From Clostridia bacterium (GTDB taxonomy: Bacteria; Bacillota; Clostridia; TANB77; CAG-508): 64,000 bases of DNA. The stretch lies in the NCBI GenBank assembly GCA_017517685.1, contig JAFWYK010000010.1, positions 66,499 through 130,498 on the forward strand, in the 5' to 3' direction. The notes under the pieces were generated by a model, which searched no databases, was not told where the DNA came from, and worked only from the letters and a program-made list of their open reading frames with translations. A program made the position numbers and the translations under genes. Shown piece after piece: positions 5,662 to 60,690 of this stretch (positions are counted from its first letter, which is position 1; every line of letters starts with the position of its first letter).

Positions 5662-5736
5662 TGGTGACCCCTACGGGAATCGAACCCATGATTCCACCTT
5701 GAGAGGGTGGCGTCTTAGCCGCTTGACCAAGGGGCC
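5662..5736 (-). tRNA. tRNA-Glu (anticodon CUC)
   Basis: 75-nt cloverleaf folded by hand on the minus strand. Acceptor GGCCCCT/AGGGGTC, anticodon arm CCACC-CTCTCAA-GGTGG, T arm ATGGG-TTCGATT-CCCGT, encoded CCA end. Confidence 0.85.
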
Positions 5737-11431: not shown

Positions 11432-11460
11432 TTGATATTTTATGTAAAATGTGGTATAAT
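11432..11460 (+). promoter_or_regulatory. sigma-A-type promoter with extended -10
   Basis: TTGATA-17 nt-TATAAT with TGg immediately upstream of the -10. 52 nt upstream of ATG 11512. Confidence 0.6.
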
Positions 11461-11511
11461 TAGTATGTAGGTATATTGAAGATTTTACAATATGATGAGG
11501 AGGTAATACCT

Positions 11512-11934
11512 ATGTACAAGATTGACACTTTTATGGAATACTGGATGATCGTCGAAGACAGACTCGTTGTTACAAATGATGTAACTCTCAAACAGATCAA
11601 GGCTATGGTTAAGGAGATGGAGTCCATCGACGCGGAGTACACTGTTGTTTTCGAAGTTGACGCTTTCGCAAGCTATCGTAAGATGCCTGAGTGCATTGCA
11701 AATCACATCAAGAATATGAATGTTGGTGACACCTGTGGTTTCGGCGATGTCGAAATTCGTAAGGTTTCTAACCATCTTTGTGTTGGCGTGATGCTCAATG
11801 TTCTCTATCAGTACAACGATCTCAAGCTCGTGGATGCACATGATCAGTTCGATGATGAGCTCACCCAGCTCGTTGAAGCAGCAGAGGAACATCCTCAGAC
11901 CGCAAAACTTCTGGAACTCCAGCTTTGCGGTTAA
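11512..11934 (+). CDS. orphan hypothetical protein on a GC-rich island
   Basis: 140 aa from ATG 11512, 8 nt after SD gaggagg. 29/60 GC on line 11581-11640 versus 10/60 on 11401-11460. Lys codons 7 AAG : 2 AAA, the opposite of the host. No family recognised. Confidence 0.65.
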   Translation: MYKIDTFMEYWMIVEDRLVVTNDVTLKQIKAMVKEMESIDAEYTVVFEVDAFASYRKMPECIANHIKNMNVGDTCGFGDVEIRKVSNHLCVGVMLNVLYQYNDLKLVDAHDQFDDELTQLVEAAEEHPQTAKLLELQLCG

Positions 11935-12008
11935 GTGAAATCAGTAACACAAGAAGCGGCGCACCACTAACATGGCGCGTCGTTTTCCGTTTTATAAAGG
12001 AGAAGAAA

Positions 12009-14588: not shown

Positions 14589-15455
14589 ATGAAAAAGCAG
14601 CAGCAGATGTACCGTGATTGTCCCTACGAAGTATACTTTGAGAACACCTTCTGTGGAGACTGTCGGAACTGCCCCAACTACAGTAATTGCGTTCTGATGC
14701 GTTATCGCGCAAGTCAAAATGAGAAAAAACGTGCAAAGACCAAGAACGTTGTTCGGAATAGAATCATCGCCTTGTGTGCTGTCATTGCCCTGGTAATGAC
14801 CAGTATTACCGTCATGGCGAGTAATGCTATTAACACTCCTTCTGAGTATTCAGTAAGTGATGTTAACACAAGAAATAGTGACGTTGTGATTACAACTCTT
14901 CGCTATGATGACCCGACAATTGTTGTGACTCCTGAAGTCAACACTGAATCCGTTACGGAGCCTGTTTCTGAGGAAACGCTTCCGATCGTGATTGTGCCTG
15001 AAATCTCTGCATATGGCCCTGGCAAACTTTACTATTACGACTTGAACGAAAGTGAAAAGTTGTACTTAGCTAAAATGGTGTACAGGGAAGCTCGTGGTGA
15101 ATCGTTTGAAGGCAAAGTAGCTGTTGTAGCCGTCGCGCTGAACAGATATTTTTCCAATGATCGCCGTTTTGATCGCCGTTCCATCTACGCAATCGTTACT
15201 CAGTCTGGTCAGTTTGCTGACATCTCCGGTGTCACCCAGGGTATGTTGGATAGCATTCCTGAATGCATGGAAGCCGTCGAGGCAGCCTGCAAGGGATGGG
15301 ATCCTACTCGTGTGACTTTCGAGGACGGTGCTTTGTTCTTCTATTCTCCGAAGAATATGTCTGAGGAGGCATTGTTGAGCAGATCTGGCGTGGAAACTCT
15401 TACTATTGGAAACCACAATTTCCATGTAGATTTCAACCCTGATTACGCACCGTAA
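14589..15455 (+). CDS. SleB/CwlJ-type cell-wall hydrolase domain protein with Cys-rich N-terminus and TM anchor (GC-rich island)
   Basis: C-terminal YLAKMVYREARGESFEGKVAVVAVALNR ... GQFA matches the Hydrolase_2 (SleB) family as I remember it. N-terminal C-x10-C-x2-C-x2-C-x5-C, then a TM helix. 29/60 GC on 15121-15180. Confidence 0.7.
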   Translation: MKKQQQMYRDCPYEVYFENTFCGDCRNCPNYSNCVLMRYRASQNEKKRAKTKNVVRNRIIALCAVIALVMTSITVMASNAINTPSEYSVSDVNTRNSDVVITTLRYDDPTIVVTPEVNTESVTEPVSEETLPIVIVPEISAYGPGKLYYYDLNESEKLYLAKMVYREARGESFEGKVAVVAVALNRYFSNDRRFDRRSIYAIVTQSGQFADISGVTQGMLDSIPECMEAVEAACKGWDPTRVTFEDGALFFYSPKNMSEEALLSRSGVETLTIGNHNFHVDFNPDYAP

Positions 15456-16384: not shown

Positions 16385-17389
16385 ATGAATAATTTCAAGG
16401 CAAAAAGAATTTTCCGGAGATTGATGAAAATTTTGTCTTTCCTGGCTATTGTTGTTATTTTGCTTGTAATGCTGGTTGTTTTAAGGCTCTATGTAGTATC
16501 AAATCAGGATGAAGTCAATCCGCAGTTTACAGATGGAAATCTTGAAATACACATGATTGATGTAGGTCAAGGTGATTCATTTGTGCTTCTGCAAGATGAT
16601 AAAGTTCTGTTAATTGATGCTGGTACCATGTACAACATGGATGTAACAAATAAAGCTTTAAAAGAACTCGGAGTCAAGAAGATTGATTATGCTATTCTTA
16701 CGCATTATCATCAAGATCATTCTGCAGGACTTTTCAGCATAATGCTAAACTACAAAATTGATCACATGTATGTGACTGATATGTCGAAGCATAATTTTTT
16801 TGATCTTGATGCTTCTCATTTTGCAATCGGAGCACTTACTAAAGTTGCTCACTACTTTTCTGGTAGTAAAATGATTGAAGGTGTAAAAGCAGAAGATGGA
16901 ACATTTAAGACATTTTGGTTTGCAGACTCATATGTAGAATTCTTAGCGCCAATTGATGATGAATATGAAAAAATCAATAATTATTCATTGGTAGCAAAAG
17001 TGACATATGGTGAGAAAACAATCCTTTTTACAGGAGATATTGAAAAAGAAGTAGAACAGCAATTGCTAGATGCAGGAGTCGATCTTTCAGCCGATGTTTA
17101 CAAAGCTGCTCATCATGGGAGTATGACATCTAATACAGAAGCGTTTATGGATGCTGTAAATCCTGAAGTGGTATTAATATCCTCAGATAATGGAAACCAC
17201 AACTATTATGGACATCCAGTTAGGCCTTTTATGGACTACTTGGAAGAGAAATTTATTAGAGTGTATCGTACAGATGAATCAGGAACTGTAAAGATAATAA
17301 TTGATGGGTACAATGTAATTAGTAGTACGAGCAGAGATGACTATAGGTCAGGCACTCAAATCGTAGAGATGGAAGGTGAATCCAACTAA
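16385..17389 (+). CDS. membrane-anchored MBL-fold hydrolase related to the ComEC/Rec2 C-terminal domain
   Basis: LEIHMIDVGQGDSFVL, ILTHYHQDHSAG, FTGDIEKE and YKAAHHGS are the ComEC-type metallo-beta-lactamase motifs. N-terminal TM helix. 22/60 GC on 16441-16500, with many CTG/CTC/AAG codons. Confidence 0.75.
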   Translation: MNNFKAKRIFRRLMKILSFLAIVVILLVMLVVLRLYVVSNQDEVNPQFTDGNLEIHMIDVGQGDSFVLLQDDKVLLIDAGTMYNMDVTNKALKELGVKKIDYAILTHYHQDHSAGLFSIMLNYKIDHMYVTDMSKHNFFDLDASHFAIGALTKVAHYFSGSKMIEGVKAEDGTFKTFWFADSYVEFLAPIDDEYEKINNYSLVAKVTYGEKTILFTGDIEKEVEQQLLDAGVDLSADVYKAAHHGSMTSNTEAFMDAVNPEVVLISSDNGNHNYYGHPVRPFMDYLEEKFIRVYRTDESGTVKIIIDGYNVISSTSRDDYRSGTQIVEMEGESN

Positions 17390-18548: not shown

Positions 18549-18758
18549 ACAAAGTAAATATTAATTTTCCCTGCGCAGTGCGTATGACGGAATTTTTAGA
18601 ACCTACAAGTTTTGGATACGGGAGCTGATCTCTATTTATGGCGTGCATGCTTGCATTTATGTAAGAAGCCCAGGAATATTTAGGAAGCGCCCACCTGTGT
18701 GAGTACAGGTCCATAAAAATTCTTTTAACAACTTACGGCTAGACGTGGGGGTTTTTTA
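18549..18758 (+). ncRNA. ssrS: probable 6S RNA
   Basis: GC-enriched ~210-nt segment after TTGATG-17-TATCAT (18514-18542). It folds by hand into one long irregular hairpin: 18569-75 pairs 18744-50 and 18589-604 pairs 18707-22. The apical GCGTGCATGC...AAGAAGCC resembles E. coli and B. subtilis 6S as I recall them. Ends in T6. Ends approximate. Confidence 0.55.
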
Positions 18759-48571: not shown

Positions 48572-49441
48572 TTATTTATTTAATCCGTATAAATCTTGTT
48601 CAACTAAAAGTTTTGCTCTTTTGGCTGTTTTGCTATTATCTGAATTTAATGATTCTTCTAAGAATTCTGGATGTTCAATTAAGAATTGTCTCATAGAACC
48701 CATTTGATCTTTTTTGAAATCTCTTAATATTTGTAATTGTTTATCGTTTATTATTCCTAGTTCTAATGCTTTAACAAATAATTCGTCATTAATTTTTAAA
48801 AGTGAAAGAACTTCTACACCACAGTCTGTAAGTACTTGTGTTCCACCATCCATTCTATCGATAACGAAGATTGACCAAAGAATTTTTGAACCTAAGTTTT
48901 CAATAGCTGGAATCCAAGCTCTAGTAAAGCTTGCTGATTGATTTAAAAGGTCTGCTACGTGTAAGAAATCTTTTCCTTCGATTTTTTCTACGGGAGCGTT
49001 TTCTGTGAATTTATAATCACTAACTACTGTAGATAGATCTTTATAGATTGTTACGTGTGGTTTTTCTAAAATATAAGCAATCATATTAGAGAAGAACCAA
49101 TCTCTTCTCTCACCACCAGAGATGTAATCGATTTTTGCAATATCTACTGATTCTTTTATATATTCTACCATTGCATCAATTGTTGTTTTATATATTTCAT
49201 TTGAATTATAATGAGCTAATACTTTTTCAAAAATATGAGCTGGAATATTTTCTTTTGTTTCATTTTCTAGTTCACTATCGATGAATGCTAATAATTCTTT
49301 TGAATCAGCATCACTACCATAGAAGAATTCACCATTTACAAAGTATGGTCCAATTTTTCCAGATGTGTACCAGAATGGCTTGTTTTCTTTAGCAATGTTA
49401 AATGCGTTTGTTTCAAATAATAAATTTGTTAAATCTTTCAT
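48572..49441 (-). CDS. phosphoribosyltransferase-like protein (PyrE-like N-terminal motif; function uncertain)
   Basis: 290 aa from ATG 49441 (SD ggaggaaatt). FWYTSGKIGPYFVN resembles the OPRTase F.L.SG..SPYY motif. FLHVADLLNQSASF sits where the PRPP loop VDD..TTGGT would be. Long C-terminal extension. Confidence 0.45.
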   Translation of the reverse strand: MKDLTNLLFETNAFNIAKENKPFWYTSGKIGPYFVNGEFFYGSDADSKELLAFIDSELENETKENIPAHIFEKVLAHYNSNEIYKTTIDAMVEYIKESVDIAKIDYISGGERRDWFFSNMIAYILEKPHVTIYKDLSTVVSDYKFTENAPVEKIEGKDFLHVADLLNQSASFTRAWIPAIENLGSKILWSIFVIDRMDGGTQVLTDCGVEVLSLLKINDELFVKALELGIINDKQLQILRDFKKDQMGSMRQFLIEHPEFLEESLNSDNSKTAKRAKLLVEQDLYGLNK

Positions 49442-49598: not shown

Positions 49599-50240
49599 AT
49601 GATTAAAAAATTAACTATTATATTTTTATTAATGGTTTTCTTTGGAATTGCAATTAATTTAACGTATGATTTTTTTATGATAGGTGACAATATAAGTGTT
49701 TATGATAATTTCTTTTATAGAAAAACATATGCTAATCGTGAAATATTAGAAGGTAATGTTAATGATGTATCACTTGAGCATAATTGTATGAGGGTTTGGG
49801 TAAGATCTAGTTCATATGATAAAGAAACTGGAAATTTAAAAATAGTATTTGAATTTGAAGATGTTAATAAAATTAAAATGAATAATTTGTGTATGAAAGC
49901 AAGAGTTCATGACGATTCATACATTTTTTATAACAAAGTAATCGGAGAAGAGTTATATTCTGATGAAATTGACTATTTTGTTTATAACTATGATTTATAT
50001 CATTTATTATCTACAGAGGGATTTAATACAGAAAAAGAAACTTTAACTGAAAAGTATTATTTTACTGGAGGAGAAAAAGGTGGCAGAATACCTATGGTAT
50101 TAAATTTAGGTAAAGGTTATGAAATAGATAATTATTTATATGTTGAATTTGTAGATATGCTGTATGATGAGTATTTTGATGTAGGAGTAAAAAAGATTTT
50201 TGAAGGTTTAGGTGAATTTAGATTTAAATTTGAGTTTTAA
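49599..50240 (+). CDS. hypothetical protein with signal-anchor
   Basis: 213-aa ORF. SD gggag upstream. N-terminal LTIIFLLMVFFGIAINL. No family recognised. Confidence 0.55.
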   Translation: MIKKLTIIFLLMVFFGIAINLTYDFFMIGDNISVYDNFFYRKTYANREILEGNVNDVSLEHNCMRVWVRSSSYDKETGNLKIVFEFEDVNKIKMNNLCMKARVHDDSYIFYNKVIGEELYSDEIDYFVYNYDLYHLLSTEGFNTEKETLTEKYYFTGGEKGGRIPMVLNLGKGYEIDNYLYVEFVDMLYDEYFDVGVKKIFEGLGEFRFKFEF

Positions 50241-50243
50241 AAA

Positions 50244-50278
50244 AGCAATGATTCCATTTAAGGAATCATTGCTTTTTC
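50244..50278. terminator. bidirectional terminator
   Basis: agcaatgattcc-loop-ggaatcattgct 12-bp stem flanked by an A-run and a T-run. Overlaps the last codons of the minus-strand gene. Confidence 0.8.
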
Positions 50279-50974
50279 TTTTTTATATTTATAATTTGGA
50301 TAATCTTCAATGTTGAATGTTTTTATATTATCTGCAGCGTTAAAGTGATACTCGTAGTCTACAGACCTAATAGGCGATGCGCCTTTATCTTCAATTGTTT
50401 CAGATCTTATAATTAGATTAGTGCTTAAATCAATATAATAAATGTGTTGTTTATATATATTGTCGTAATCAGTAGTGAATGATACTTTTATACAAGTTTT
50501 GCCATTAATCTGTTTTTTTCCATGATATTTGTAATGGTTTTCGTGAGTGTACTTGCCATGATAATAAACACAATTAAAAAAACTGTTGATAGGGGTTAAC
50601 ACTATATATTTTGAATCAGATGATGCTGGAAAATAATCTGTGTATTCTGTTATTGTTTTATTATTATGATCAATTTCAAAAAATTGATGTTCATAACGAA
50701 TAGTTAGAAAATTAAAATCTATATTATTAAGAGGATCTTTTACTTTTTGAATAGTATTAATCAATCCATCTTTATATAATATTTCGTATGAATTATTGCT
50801 GTATTCGTCGTTTACTTTTTTGATGTAATGAAAATTATCTGGAAGTTCCACAGTATTTAGTAGTGCACTAACTTGGTGTAATGGATATTGAGTTTTATAA
50901 TAAATATAGTATGCACCATATGAAATAAGTGCTATAAAAAATAAACTAAATAAAATAATAAAAAATTTTTTCAT
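50258..50974 (-). CDS. hypothetical exported/anchored protein
   Basis: Frame trimmed to ATG 50974 (MKKFFIILFSLFFIALISYGAYYIY) after SD acggagaag. No family recognised. Confidence 0.55.
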   Translation of the reverse strand: MKKFFIILFSLFFIALISYGAYYIYYKTQYPLHQVSALLNTVELPDNFHYIKKVNDEYSNNSYEILYKDGLINTIQKVKDPLNNIDFNFLTIRYEHQFFEIDHNNKTITEYTDYFPASSDSKYIVLTPINSFFNCVYYHGKYTHENHYKYHGKKQINGKTCIKVSFTTDYDNIYKQHIYYIDLSTNLIIRSETIEDKGASPIRSVDYEYHFNAADNIKTFNIEDYPNYKYKKEKAMIP

Positions 50975-51044
50975 TTTCTTCTCCGTAAAATATTTATAAA
51001 ATAATTTAATCATTAATTATAGTGTTTGTAAATATATTTAAGGG

Positions 51045-51070
51045 CAAAAAAATAACGCTATGTATAGCGT
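51045..51070 (-). terminator. Rho-independent terminator of the GC-rich ORF
   Basis: Minus strand reads acgcta-taca-tagcgt followed by tattttttt. Confidence 0.65.
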
Positions 51071-51113
51071 AAATAAGTTGTCACCGCAGGGCCCGAAGTT
51101 GGGCCCCGCAGCT

Positions 51114-51126
51114 AGAAAGGTAAGTG
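51114..51126. repeat. left arm of a 13-bp perfect inverted repeat (AGAAAGGTAAGTG)
   Basis: Its exact reverse complement occurs at 51635-51647. Similarity extends imperfectly (ttgaaca / ttcaaca) after a 2-3 nt gap. Confidence 0.8.
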
Positions 51127-51152
51127 TTGAACAACTAACGCATTAAATGCGT

Positions 51153-51542
51153 TTAGGGAAGATCGTTCGGATCCAAATCTTCGGCAGAATTGGCCTCGAC
51201 ACCAGGTCCGTTAGCAGGTCCCTTTTCGGGAGCTACGCCAGTAGTGTCGGTGGCATCATCTTCAGATTCTTCTTCGTCGAGTGCGACGAGAACGCCTTCG
51301 GGCAGCTTGATGGTGATGCAGTTGCCTGCGTCTTCCACGATGAAACCATCGTCTTTGAGTTCATCCAGCACATCAACGGGAACGTTGTGGGTAACAGAAA
51401 GCTCGAAGGCTTCGGGACCCTTATACTGGTTGAGCAGATCCTGGTAAAGATCGTTCATGGAAGAAGTGATGTTGCTCATGTGGTAATTGTGACGCTTAGT
51501 GAAAAGCTTGTCAGCCATGTTTTGTGCATTGAAAGTAGACAT
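51153..51542 (-). CDS. orphan hypothetical acidic protein on a GC-rich island
   Basis: 129 aa. SD aaggagg 10 nt upstream of ATG 51542. 32/60 GC on 51241-51300. Lys codons 5 AAG : 1 AAA. C-terminal D/E/P/G-rich tail. Chosen over two overlapping plus-strand ORFs that lack an SD and are low-complexity. Confidence 0.6.
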   Translation of the reverse strand: MSTFNAQNMADKLFTKRHNYHMSNITSSMNDLYQDLLNQYKGPEAFELSVTHNVPVDVLDELKDDGFIVEDAGNCITIKLPEGVLVALDEEESEDDATDTTGVAPEKGPANGPGVEANSAEDLDPNDLP

Positions 51543-51634
51543 TAGTTAAAGTCCTCCTTGTGTCTATAAAATAATGAATGTTGGGATTGGGGGTCTTGGT
51601 CTAAAATTGTCATTTGCTAAAACATGTTGAACTT

Positions 51635-51647
51635 CACTTACCTTTCT
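51635..51647. repeat. right arm of the 13-bp perfect inverted repeat (CACTTACCTTTCT)
   Basis: Reverse complement of 51114-51126. Lies in the predicted 5' UTR of the minus-strand ORF. Confidence 0.8.
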
Positions 51648-51706
51648 GTTTGAAGTGCAAATAAATTATTGCAAAAGCACTTCTTTAGGATAAAATCCTA
51701 ATTATT

Positions 51707-51735
51707 ATTATATCATAATTTACATAAAATAGCAA
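51707..51735 (-). promoter_or_regulatory. sigma-A-type promoter driving the GC-rich ORF
   Basis: Minus strand reads TTGCTA-17 nt-TATAAT with TGa extension. Predicts a ~155-nt 5' UTR containing hairpins aggat-ttt-atcct and gaagtgc...gcacttc. Confidence 0.55.
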
Positions 51736-51797
51736 ATTAGATAAAATGGTTAATTTTAATAAGGCGAAAATGGATGAAAGCGTTGAAAAAAGTGAGT

Positions 51798-51826
51798 TTG
51801 ACAAAAAGAATAAAAATGACTATATT
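51798..51826 (+). promoter_or_regulatory. sigma-A-type promoter of the pyr operon
   Basis: TTGACA-17 nt-TATATT, 70 nt upstream of pyrC. No PyrR-binding loop recognised. Confidence 0.55.
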
Positions 51827-51895
51827 ACTTGAAAATATTATTGAAAAATAACACTAAAAATGATAAAATGGTGAAAATTATTGAGGAGGTAAAAA

Positions 51896-53173
51896 ATGAA
51901 TACTTTACTAAAAAACGGAACTGTAATTGACTACGCAAGTAATACTAATCAAAAATTAGATGTATTAATTGAAAACGATATTATTGTTAAAATAGCTGAA
52001 AATATTGATGTACAAGCAGACAGAGTTATTGATTGTACTGGTTATTATATTATGCCTGGAATGATTGACGTTCATTGTCATTTAAGAGAACCAGGTGGAG
52101 AACACAAAGAAACTATAGAAACAGGTTCAAAAAGCGCTGTAGCTGGCGGATTTACAACTATTTGTCCTATGCCAAATACTAATCCAACTCCAGATAGCGC
52201 TATTGTTTTGCAACAAATTATTCAAAGAGCAAAAGAAGTAAATCTTTGTAATATACTTCCATACTCAAGTGTAACAAGAGGAGAAAAAGGACAAGAACTT
52301 GTTGATTTTAAATCACAACTTGAAGCTGGTGCTATAGCATTTTCTGATGACGGTATGCCAGTTGAAAATGCAAGAATGATAAGAGAAGCTTTGTTTGAAG
52401 CAAATAAACTTGGAACATTTGTAGCAGAACACTGTGAAGAAAAATCAGTTTCAGCAGGAGCAATAAATGCTGGACCAGTAGCTAGAAGATTAGAAGTTGA
52501 AGGTGTACTTCCAGAAGCAGAAGAAATTATGGCAGCTAGAGATATAGTTTTAGCTGAAACAAATAATCTACACGCTCATATCTGTCATATTAGCACAAAA
52601 ACATCAGTTGATATGATAAGAAGTGCAAAACAAAGAGGAGTTAAAGTAACATGTGAAACATGTCCTCATTATTATAGTTTTACAGTTGAAGAAGTTTTAG
52701 AGTCAGGTGTAAATGCAAAAATGAATCCTCCATTAAGAGAAGAAAAAGATAGACTTGCAATAATTGAAGGTATAAAAGATGGAACAATTGACTGTGTTAT
52801 AACAGATCATGCTCCACATGCTGAAGAAGAAAAAGCAAGAGGATTAGCAACAGCTCCAAACGGAATTATTGGATTTGAAACAGCACTTGGTGCAACAATA
52901 ACAAATTTAGTAGATCCTGGTTTAATAACATACTTAGATATGGTAAGAGTAATGTGCTATAATCCAGCAAAACTTTTAAAAATAGATAGAGGTGAAATTG
53001 CAGAAGGTAAAGTTGCAGATATCACAATATTTGATCCAAATAGAGAATATGTATTTTTAAAAGATAGAATAGTTTCAAAATCAAAAAATACTCCATGGAT
53101 AAATAAAAAATTAAAAGGACAAGTTAGATATACAATCGTATCAGGAAGAGTTGTATATGAAAGAGGAGAGTAG
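51896..53173 (+). CDS. pyrC: dihydroorotase
   Basis: DVHCHLREPG metal-binding motif, and the DHAPH motif. 425 aa. Confidence 0.9.
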   Translation: MNTLLKNGTVIDYASNTNQKLDVLIENDIIVKIAENIDVQADRVIDCTGYYIMPGMIDVHCHLREPGGEHKETIETGSKSAVAGGFTTICPMPNTNPTPDSAIVLQQIIQRAKEVNLCNILPYSSVTRGEKGQELVDFKSQLEAGAIAFSDDGMPVENARMIREALFEANKLGTFVAEHCEEKSVSAGAINAGPVARRLEVEGVLPEAEEIMAARDIVLAETNNLHAHICHISTKTSVDMIRSAKQRGVKVTCETCPHYYSFTVEEVLESGVNAKMNPPLREEKDRLAIIEGIKDGTIDCVITDHAPHAEEEKARGLATAPNGIIGFETALGATITNLVDPGLITYLDMVRVMCYNPAKLLKIDRGEIAEGKVADITIFDPNREYVFLKDRIVSKSKNTPWINKKLKGQVRYTIVSGRVVYERGE

Positions 53174-60381: not shown

Positions 60382-60444
60382 GTTTTGAAAAAAGTTCTTG
60401 ATTTTTAAACTAAATTATGTTAATATAGTTACATATTTAAATAC

Positions 60445-60690
60445 GAAGAAAAAGAGGAGTAAGTAAAAAACTACTAGCAAGAGAAAAGAAGTGATGCGCT
60501 GAGAGCTTCTTATAGAAAGATTTACTGAAAGTAGCTTTGGAGTAGATATACCGAAAATAACTTTAAGTATATCCGTCTAAGTAACGTTAAAAACTTAAAT
60601 GAGATGATTGCTAATAAGCAATTAATTAAGGTGGTACCGTGATTTTGATAAATCGCCCTTATACATTTTAGTGTATAAGGGCTTTTTTGT
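60445..60690 (+). promoter_or_regulatory. T-box riboswitch leader, valine specifier
   Basis: Conserved T-box AATTAAGGTGGTACCGTG (60624-60641). Terminator gcccttatac...gtataagggc followed by T6 (60655-60686). GTA codon in the GAAAGTAGC specifier context (60531-60533). Upstream of valS. Confidence 0.85.

Follow-up and report, generated by a model that had tools for sequence, protein, structure and literature searches.

A predicted 5′/3′-UTR closing helix around a GC-rich, fast-evolving orphan gene in a Candidatus Scatovivens lineage

Within a 64,000-nucleotide (nt) window of DNA from an uncultured Clostridia bacterium (contig JAFWYK010000010.1; all positions are those of the window), we analysed a small minus-strand module at 51045-51735 that encodes a 129-amino-acid (aa) acidic protein next to pyrC and that had earlier been described from its letters alone (hereafter the sequence-only reading). 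The two untranslated regions (UTRs) of its predicted transcript contain complementary stretches, and the helix that they are predicted to form, closing the transcript around its coding sequence (CDS), is phylogenetically supported by comparison of related loci and previously unrecorded. The CDS enclosed by this helix is compositionally alien to the genome and hypervariable. Homologues are cited by our own numbers (L for loci, P for proteins).

The helix is apparent at several levels. An inverted repeat has its two halves on either side of the CDS (51114-51135 and 51626-51647), and in the minimum free energy (MFE) fold of the whole transcript a closing helix encloses the CDS (−202 vs −156 kcal/mol, z −6.3, 20 shuffles); nucleotides ~55-88 of the leader pair with the entire 3′UTR, giving an interrupted helix of ~30 bp with a 13-bp core. 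RNAduplex, given the leader of each lineage and its own 3′UTR (stop codon to GC hairpin), returned −26.9 kcal/mol for the window, and none of 300 shuffles was as good. In all seven homologous loci compared, which represent five allele classes, the best duplex lies at the homologous place (−26.6 to −35.3 kcal/mol, z −2.3 to −6.7). It begins ~49-64 nt from the predicted 5′ end, except in L002, where the transcript start is mis-set, and its 3′ arm stops 1-2 nt short of the GC hairpin in 7/7 loci, using nearly the whole 3′UTR. The pairing lies ~55-70 nt upstream of the start codon, leaving the Shine-Dalgarno (SD) sequence uncovered.

Between lineages, the two arms change together. The covarying stretch reads GGUAAGUG / CACUUACC in the window, GGUAUG / CAUACC in both L008 and L096, GGUA(U)GGUG / CACCUACC in L093 and GCAAGCGAC / GUCGCUUGC in L009. 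Across six distinct arm sets, placed in a hand-set register, 94% of cells are paired and five pairs show two-sided changes; the covariation score (0.207 vs 0.108 in shuffles) was reached by 0 of 500 shuffles, and slid controls contained no two-sided changes. A U-G pair in the L096 helix, together with the wobble pairs of the adjoining GC hairpin, can pair in the sense RNA only, which favours an RNA helix over terminal repeats acting at the level of DNA. The sequence-only reading had taken the long leader as a hint of regulated expression; the leader by itself folds no better than shuffles (z −0.6) and matches no Rfam family. Its main conserved role, which that reading had not seen, appears from these comparisons to be pairing with the 3′UTR.

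The CDS within this scaffold evolves several-fold faster than the UTRs around it and the neighbouring genes. Between the window and L008, nucleotide identity is 0.93 in pyrC, 0.87 in the promoter, 0.85 in the leader and 0.80 in the 3′UTR, vs 0.65 in the CDS (0.50 at the amino acid level); for the closer L002, the corresponding values are 0.984, 0.93, 0.97, 0.99 and 0.90 (0.88). Third positions differ at 55% in the CDS vs 19% in pyrC. Such divergence is extreme: the 129-aa protein is 50% identical where pyrC is 98% identical. At residues that are identical between allele classes, synonymous identity is 0.69-0.77 in the first 20 codons (51483-51542) vs ~0.45-0.6 in most later blocks, a pattern that hints at RNA-level constraint around the initiation region. 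Part of the CDS excess is expected, because at a neutral equilibrium GC content at third codon positions (GC3) of ~0.1 G/C sites would, by our own calculation, mutate roughly nine times as fast as A/T sites, and this hypermutability, given the host's strong mutational bias towards AT, would raise the neutral rate of a gene of GC3 ~0.55 about threefold. Weak constraint on the protein, exchange of old alleles, or both would add to the divergence. That the RNA scaffold is conserved while the CDS within it is hypervariable suggests either evolution driven by conflict or weak constraint.

Comparison of relatives also bears on how long the gene has been in place. The host is a Candidatus Scatovivens lineage of metagenome-assembled genomes (MAGs); the pyrC gene of the window is 98% identical to that of a Scatovivens MAG and 72-92% identical to those of ~80 related uncultured Clostridia. 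The genus is placed at NCBI in Clostridiaceae incertae sedis, and sigK in the window is a marker of a spore-forming lineage. A first peptide-pattern scan of GTDB genomes missed the divergent homologues, which were recovered through pyrC. The loci with the gene at the same site (L001-L009, L090-L096 and L120-L121) fall into at least five allele classes (window/L001/L002; L008/L096/L120; L090; L093/L121; L009), and every recovered contig has the same order of leftward pyrC, a gene of the 129-aa family, and a 289-aa phosphoribosyltransferase (PRTase)-like gene. Among more distant homologues, P0021 (GC3 0.37, flank 25% GC) also adjoins the PRTase-like gene, and P0019 (GC3 0.57) has the same promoter, 5′ hairpin and terminator hairpin. 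The sequence-only reading had called this a tiny foreign gene. However, sister species whose pyrC is 90-99% identical to that of the window at the nucleotide level have a homologue of like GC-rich composition in the same place, and the gene is thus not a recent one-off import. That reading had itself named two findings that would speak against foreign origin, close relatives sharing site and composition and many native genes sharing the codon bias; the relatives are as it described, but native genes do not share the bias. To judge from these loci, the cassette is old within the subclade and a long-term resident.

Between the PRTase-like gene and pyrC lies an insertion hot spot. In most relatives this slot is empty and 130-320 bp long; in others (among loci L010-L087) it measures 600-2700 bp and carries unrelated cargo, including a permease, membrane proteins of 86 and 117 aa, a 72-aa gene and a GC-rich open reading frame (ORF) of 209 aa. 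Insertions sit cleanly between two divergent promoters, and the slot sequences that we inspected contain no recombinase or mobile-element repeats. The 72-aa slot gene (L012, L013, L016, L022), which has the same promoter as the 129-aa gene, was considered as a relative of the family and rejected (hhalign probability 0.2%). In the window, the module is separated from the PRTase-like gene by two AT-rich hypothetical genes at 49599-51013 (plus strand, 213 aa; minus strand, 251 aa), which constitute a strain-level indel in this slot: L008, L009 and L090 lack them, and so does L001, although its 129-aa gene is 99.5% identical. The PRTase-like gene itself (48572-49441, minus strand, 289 aa) is conserved, lies divergent from pyrC throughout the clade and has no Pfam hit. 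Its NCBIfam likeness to orotate and adenine phosphoribosyltransferases is weak and sub-threshold (E 8e-9); it may encode an uncharacterised PRTase with a link to pyrimidine metabolism.

The composition of the CDS is anomalous for a host window of ~28% GC that contains three GC-rich islands within 64 kb. GC content peaks at 0.51 (300-nt windows, 51050-51499) vs 0.21-0.30 in the flanks. Among 60 ORFs retained from the window (minimum length 90 aa), native genes have a GC3 of 0.06-0.20, and the three islands have 0.51 (11512-11934), 0.48 (14589-15455) and 0.54 (the 129-aa gene). Four-fold degenerate sites are alike in the three islands (T ~0.45, C 0.23-0.36, A and G each 0.07-0.16) and different in native genes including dnaK (A ~0.6, T ~0.4, C and G ~0). 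The codon signature that the sequence-only reading had seen as common to this gene and the islands at 11.5 and 14.6 kb is thus borne out, as are its count of 32 G or C among the 60 letters of 51241-51300 and its ratio of five AAG to one AAA among Lys codons. The anomaly is a property of the whole family: GC3 is 0.50-0.63 in all allele classes vs 0.08-0.10 in pyrC. A gene with a metallo-beta-lactamase (MBL) fold at 16385-17389 is intermediate (GC 0.35, GC3 0.28), perhaps an accessory gene of greater age or one that has partly ameliorated. The window also encodes a tRNA-Glu with anticodon CUC (5662-5736, minus strand) that reads GAG, a codon that is rare in native genes.

When third-position differences between the window and L002 were polarised with outgroups, 7 were from A/T to G/C (weak to strong, W>S) and 6 from G/C to A/T (S>W), counts that are small and come from outgroups near saturation, and that argue against simple ongoing amelioration. 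Under an amelioration model calibrated on pyrC third-position divergence, neutral decay of the CDS from an ancestral GC3 of ~0.65 may nevertheless be compatible with the data at such depth, and we do not claim selection on GC3 as proven: selection may maintain the GC3 of the CDS, biased conversion or exchange of alleles may uphold it, or it may be in slow decay. Composition alone raises the folding stability of the CDS by about half (−100 to −110 vs −61 to −74 kcal/mol per 390 nt). Selected secondary structure within the CDS was considered as well and found unconvincing (z −0.35 to −2.9 against synonymous-codon shuffles).

The CDS is a real coding gene, since substitutions between allele classes follow the order third > first > second codon position (70/37/30 for the window vs L008) and the frame is kept at 50% amino acid identity, with homologous CDS of 327-390 nt that are all in frame. 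An ATG-initiated ORF of such length arises in 0.5% of island shuffles. An equally long ORF on the plus strand (51147-51545) was rejected as a gene, as it has no SD and its own first codon position is the most variable. The product has an isoelectric point (pI) of 4.05 and a net charge of −20, and the sequence-only reading was right to call it an orphan acidic protein: family and structure libraries are empty of it. No family was found in Pfam, PHROG, NCBIfam or PADLOC, the sole library hit being a 14-bit match to sigma-54 that we treat as spurious; a profile search of the PDB gave at best a putative lipoprotein at E 0.011; and blastn and tblastn against phage and plasmid collections, with a scan of IMG/VR, yielded no relatives. 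A word-indexed search of 5.8 billion proteins returned 2 clusters when queried with the sequence alone, and 18 when a profile was used. An exhaustive hidden Markov model (HMM) search of 1.84 billion representatives gave 7 hits. Five of them appear to be genuine relatives (P0009 and P0014 and, at a greater distance, P0019, P0021 and P0023), and two were rejected as repeat proteins that have a short P-x-D-x-x-x-E-x-x-x-x-G-F-like motif in common. These proteins define a new, unannotated family of small acidic proteins that is fast-evolving.

The family alignment contains a conserved N-domain with invariant residues. AlphaFold, run with this alignment, gave a predicted local distance difference test (pLDDT) score of 58 for the full protein, and of 73 for the N-domain alone (predicted template modelling score 0.55), which is predicted as a helix at residues 6-38 followed by beta-alpha-beta-beta up to residue 79. 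From residue ~84-86 to 129, the tail is predicted to be disordered and acidic, and it varies among classes in length and sequence. Its C-terminal DPNDLP (within the last codons, 51153-51179) does not vary in three allele classes, apart from the fragmentary or frameshifted P0011, and gives way to acidic ends (…EEAE, …DDAD) in two other classes; it loosely recalls the acidic C-terminal tip of single-stranded DNA-binding protein (SSB), but without the terminal Phe. Foldseek searches with the full and N-domain models produced no significant match (best E 0.23 in PDB and 0.044 in the viral set, BFVD). The best PDB match, 2d9i, an Smr (small MutS-related) domain, is likewise not significant (template modelling scores 0.55/0.51, E 0.23, 14% identity), and an Smr-type catalytic motif was not seen by eye in the 129-aa protein. 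The predicted combination of a folded acidic domain, a disordered acidic tail and a short C-terminal motif suggests that the protein probably acts by binding a partner macromolecule.

The features of the module are collected in Table 1. Apart from the TG of an extended −10, which we add, the promoter is as the sequence-only reading gave it, and the two leader hairpins, the SD, the ORF and the canonical terminator that it listed are likewise present; the predicted transcript of ~650 nt is monocistronic with its own promoter, leader, SD, ORF and terminators, that is, self-contained as it had proposed. The promoter occurs in every homologous locus, and its 29-nt pattern is found twice in the window (here and at 11432-11460), with 0 occurrences expected from shuffles. 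In SL1 the stem is invariant across lineages and the loop variable, and its AGGAUUUUAUCCU recurs in the distant homologue L088; SL2 shows compensatory changes (GAAACGC/GCGUUUC in L090, GAAGCG/CGCUUC in L009, AAUGC/GCAUU in L088). Every lineage, including the distant L088 and L089, has a CCCC-type run at the place of the C-rich stretch, and the SD is unchanged among close lineages. The GC hairpin is more stable as minus-strand RNA (−23.1 vs −17.3 kcal/mol as plus-strand RNA) and has two G-U pairs rather than the one counted in the sequence-only reading. In L009 both wobbles are replaced by Watson-Crick pairs, and in L009 and L088 a T-run directly follows the homologous hairpin, which there acts as a terminator. 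A possible upstream ORF in the leader (ATG ~51606, end TAATG) was dropped because its ATG is not kept in L008. A gathering-threshold Rfam scan of the window returned only T-box, 6S and tRNA, all at other places, and an E-value scan of 50950-51900 returned only noise (E ≥ 4). The 6S RNA and the T-box leader lie at 18565-18755 (+) and 60437-60663 (+), respectively.

Table 1. Features of the minus-strand module at 51045-51735, in order of transcription.
Feature	Position	Strand	Details
Promoter, sigma-A-type	51707-51735	−	−35 TTGCTA, 17-nt spacer TTTTATGTAAATTATGA, extended −10 TG-n-TATAAT
Leader	~51700 (predicted start) to ATG 51542	−	~158 nt, with stem-loops SL1 and SL2
SL1	51686-51700	−	Hairpin at predicted transcript 5′ end; UAGGAU-UUU-AUCCUA
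SL2	51652-51683	−	Stem GAAGUGC/GCACUUC; loop contains conserved AAUAAUUUAU
Predicted closing helix, 5′ arm	51615-51648	−	Core AGAAAGGUAAGUG = 51635-51647; from inverted repeat, MFE, RNAduplex and covariation
C-rich stretch	51580-51595	−	GACCCCCAAUCCCAAC; between closing helix and SD; mostly unpaired in predicted fold
Shine-Dalgarno	51553-51559	−	AAGGAGG; ATG 10 nt downstream
CDS, 129-aa acidic protein	51153-51542	−	GC3 0.54
3′UTR = predicted closing helix, 3′ arm	51113-51151	−	Core CACUUACCUUUCU = complement of 51114-51126
GC hairpin	51084-51111	−	CUGCGGGGCCC-AACUUC-GGGCCCUGCGG; two G-U pairs
Second intrinsic terminator, canonical	51045-51070	−	ACGCUAU-ACA-AUAGCGU then U-run; stem 51055-51070

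Taken together, these features lead us to favour, with slightly better than even confidence, a lineage-restricted, moron-like Scatovivens cassette, with a strong, near-consensus sigma-A promoter, whose mRNA is hardened for stable, high expression of an acidic product with a folded N-domain and a disordered tail. One could envision the 5′ hairpin, SL2, the ~30-bp clamp, the consensus SD, the GC hairpin with its second terminator, and the GC-rich CDS with its pyrimidine-ending codons as a kit that would guard the transcript against 5′ and 3′ exonucleases and against endonucleases with a preference for AU-rich RNA, in the way that pairing of the UTRs protects hbs mRNA in Bacillus subtilis; the outcome would be high and stable expression. 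Several points weigh against this interpretation. We infer mRNA stabilisation from anatomy alone, and a duplex of ~30 bp could instead be a substrate of RNase III and thus a negative control element. Only six distinct sequences enter the covariation test; their register was set by hand, and one bulged base was taken out. Excess structure in the CDS over synonymous-codon shuffles is weak at most, the structure models are moderate (pLDDT 58 and 73) and have no significant match, and the promoter motif occurs in 21 IMG/VR contigs of 21-54% GC from unrelated phage.

The main alternative, which we consider fairly improbable, is that the 5′/3′-UTR duplex itself exerts negative control, through RNase III cleavage or through a poorly translated form of the mRNA as in icaR. 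The duplex is long and conserved, a C-rich stretch does lie upstream of the SD, and icaR offers a precedent (PMC7821165); but the pairing is ~55-70 nt before the start codon and leaves the SD uncovered, the C-rich motif is in the 5′UTR rather than the 3′UTR, and, read by eye, it matches AAGGAGG with an internal mismatch only. The C-rich motif enters differently into a lesser alternative, to which we give little credence, in which the transcript is mainly a regulatory RNA that happens to carry an ORF and the motif acts in trans on G-rich ribosome-binding sites. In this it would resemble the VR-RNA of Clostridium perfringens and RNAIII. The conservation of the UTRs, which exceeds that of the CDS, and a conserved CCCC-type motif that is predicted to be largely unpaired would fit such an RNA, and RNAIII likewise has a 5′-3′ closing helix (PMC7821165). 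However, protein-level constraint is clear from the third > first > second order of substitutions and from invariant residues, and there is no Rfam family. The same constraint makes it hardly tenable that there is no gene here at all and that the ORF is a by-product of few stop codons in the GC-rich DNA of a structured non-coding RNA. GC-rich islands in AT-rich genomes do often mark structured RNAs, and the antisense ORF (51147-51545, plus strand) is equally long; yet the 129-aa ORF is kept in frame at 50% amino acid identity over lengths of 327-390 nt and is preceded by a consensus SD at the correct spacing, the position that varies most is position 1 of the antisense frame, Rfam again has no family, and the predominance of third-position changes already largely refutes this explanation.

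Two further alternatives concern the origin of the cassette rather than its RNA. That it is a recently acquired foreign gene, from a GC-richer donor, a phage or a plasmid, coding for an anti-defence or anti-sigma-like factor, seems clearly improbable to us, even though a GC3 of 0.54 against a native 0.06-0.20, a variable slot that is empty in most relatives, an acidic orphan product, and a promoter type that is also found in phage contigs of 46-54% GC are what one would expect of such a gene. Homologues that share site and composition across at least five allele classes from sister species are not, and relatives are absent from phage, plasmid and IMG/VR collections, as are PHROG and PADLOC hits, and recombinases or flanking mobile-element repeats from the slot sequences inspected; recent amelioration would moreover predict a dominance of GC>AT changes in place of the W>S 7 and S>W 6 observed. 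The anti-defence, anti-sigma and small-regulator roles named in the sequence-only reading found no support in sequence, profile, structure or context searches: PHROGs, PADLOC, NCBIfam, PDB and Foldseek gave no meaningful likeness to anti-defence, anti-sigma or defence proteins, although these libraries are poor in anti-defence proteins. Very improbable, in our judgement, is that the inverted repeats flanking the CDS serve at the DNA level as terminal repeats for a small cassette that is mobile or recombines. They bracket the hypervariable CDS exactly, and the CDS resembles exchangeable alleles between conserved flanks; but the arms covary by compensation and keep no single recognition sequence, the U-G pair of L096 and the wobbles of the adjacent hairpin pair in the sense RNA only, and no transposase or recombinase is nearby.

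Beyond the single cassette, we put forward tentatively, as a minority possibility, that the 129-aa cassette, the first GC-rich island of the window and possibly other small promoter-sharing ORFs of related genomes form a class of "hardened" mini-genes in an extremely AT-rich genome, whose codon usage would be held by selection on the mRNA (slow decay and resistance to AU-preferring RNases) and by the clamp rather than reflect foreign origin. The first island (11432-11990) comprises a promoter at 11432-11460, an SD (GAGGAGG), a CDS for a 140-aa orphan at 11512-11934 (GC3 0.51) and a terminator-like hairpin. Its protein has only 4 homologous clusters. In L098, the only relative in which the upstream gene is resolved, it occupies the same locus after a dCMP deaminase gene; promoter and leader are conserved also in L097, both relatives have a GC3 of 0.53, and identity is 49-70% for the protein against 96% for the deaminase next to it. 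Related genomes contain further small orphans, monocistronic and of GC3 0.26-0.48, that are driven by promoters of this type. We rejected the shared promoter as a sign of common origin or of a special class, since its occurrence in unrelated phage contigs marks it as a generic strong clostridial promoter. The exact AT-rich motif TTTATGTAAAnTnTGnTATAAT follows TTGACA or TTGCAT in phage contigs of 46-54% GC (L100, L102, L105, L112, L115, L119), and this suggests an architecture that is strong and widely used in Clostridia and their phages. The second island (14589-15455), between recN and sigK, encodes 288 aa with the same pyrimidine-ending codon signature (GC3 0.48); its protein has a Cys-rich N-terminus, one predicted transmembrane segment and a SleB/Hydrolase_2 domain (Pfam 3.8e-16, TIGR02869 4e-18).

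If mini-genes of this kind are real, atypical composition would mark a mode of expression and not horizontal transfer. Because the anomaly is shared and substitutions run in both directions, the equation of atypical composition with recent transfer is not simply valid here, and a GC3 of 0.54 vs ~0.1 that is common to sister species at one locus would, if confirmed, be a caution to those who call genomic islands. Confirmation would also define a small, unannotated, fast-evolving family of acidic proteins, and would add an mRNA of an uncultured gut Clostridium, backed by natural compensatory mutations, to the handful of described cases of bacterial 5′/3′-UTR pairing (RNAIII/hld, icaR and hbs, reviewed in PMC7821165).

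The known system nearest to the hardened-mRNA reading is B. subtilis hbs, in which a 14-bp interaction of the 5′UTR with the 3′UTR modulates cleavage by RNase Y and ribosomes initiating at a strong SD block RNase J1 (Braun, Durand & Condon 2017, PMC5737220; review PMC7821165). Like hbs, the present transcript is monocistronic, encodes a small protein of an abundant type, and has a structured 5′UTR, an SD of consensus strength and a 5′UTR-3′UTR helix that leaves the SD free, here as a 13-bp core in an interrupted duplex of ~30 bp. Unlike in hbs, the predicted helix takes up the whole 3′UTR and abuts the terminator hairpin, and the CDS is hypervariable and stands apart from its genome in composition; the product is unrelated to HU/Hbs and has no Pfam or NCBIfam match. 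As in icaR and RNAIII of Staphylococcus aureus, the transcript ends are predicted to pair intramolecularly and a C-rich motif is present, and as in RNAIII, where the ORF is hld, a long-range helix closes the scaffold in which the ORF is embedded. However, the pairing differs from that of icaR in that the SD is not involved and the C-rich motif is in the 5′UTR instead of the 3′UTR; anti-SD pairing of the 3′UTR was not found in the predicted fold, where the 3′UTR pairs with leader nucleotides ~55-88 instead. The ORF differs from that of RNAIII in being 129 aa long and clearly under protein-level constraint.

With phage morons and single-gene islands, the cassette has in common that it is an independent unit of odd composition between unrelated conserved genes, in a slot whose cargo varies; in contrast to them, it lies outside any prophage, has no phage homologues, is flanked by genes of pyrimidine biosynthesis and is kept at one site in sister species. 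Small acidic inhibitor and DNA-mimic proteins of the Ocr, ArdA, Arn and Ugi type are also small and strongly acidic, as is the 129-aa protein with its acidic disordered region, but the latter has no likeness of sequence or fold to solved or viral predicted structures and no mobile-element context. An accessory orphan cassette and UTR-UTR pairing are thus each of a known kind; what is new is a predicted helix of this sort around an aberrant, fast-evolving CDS.

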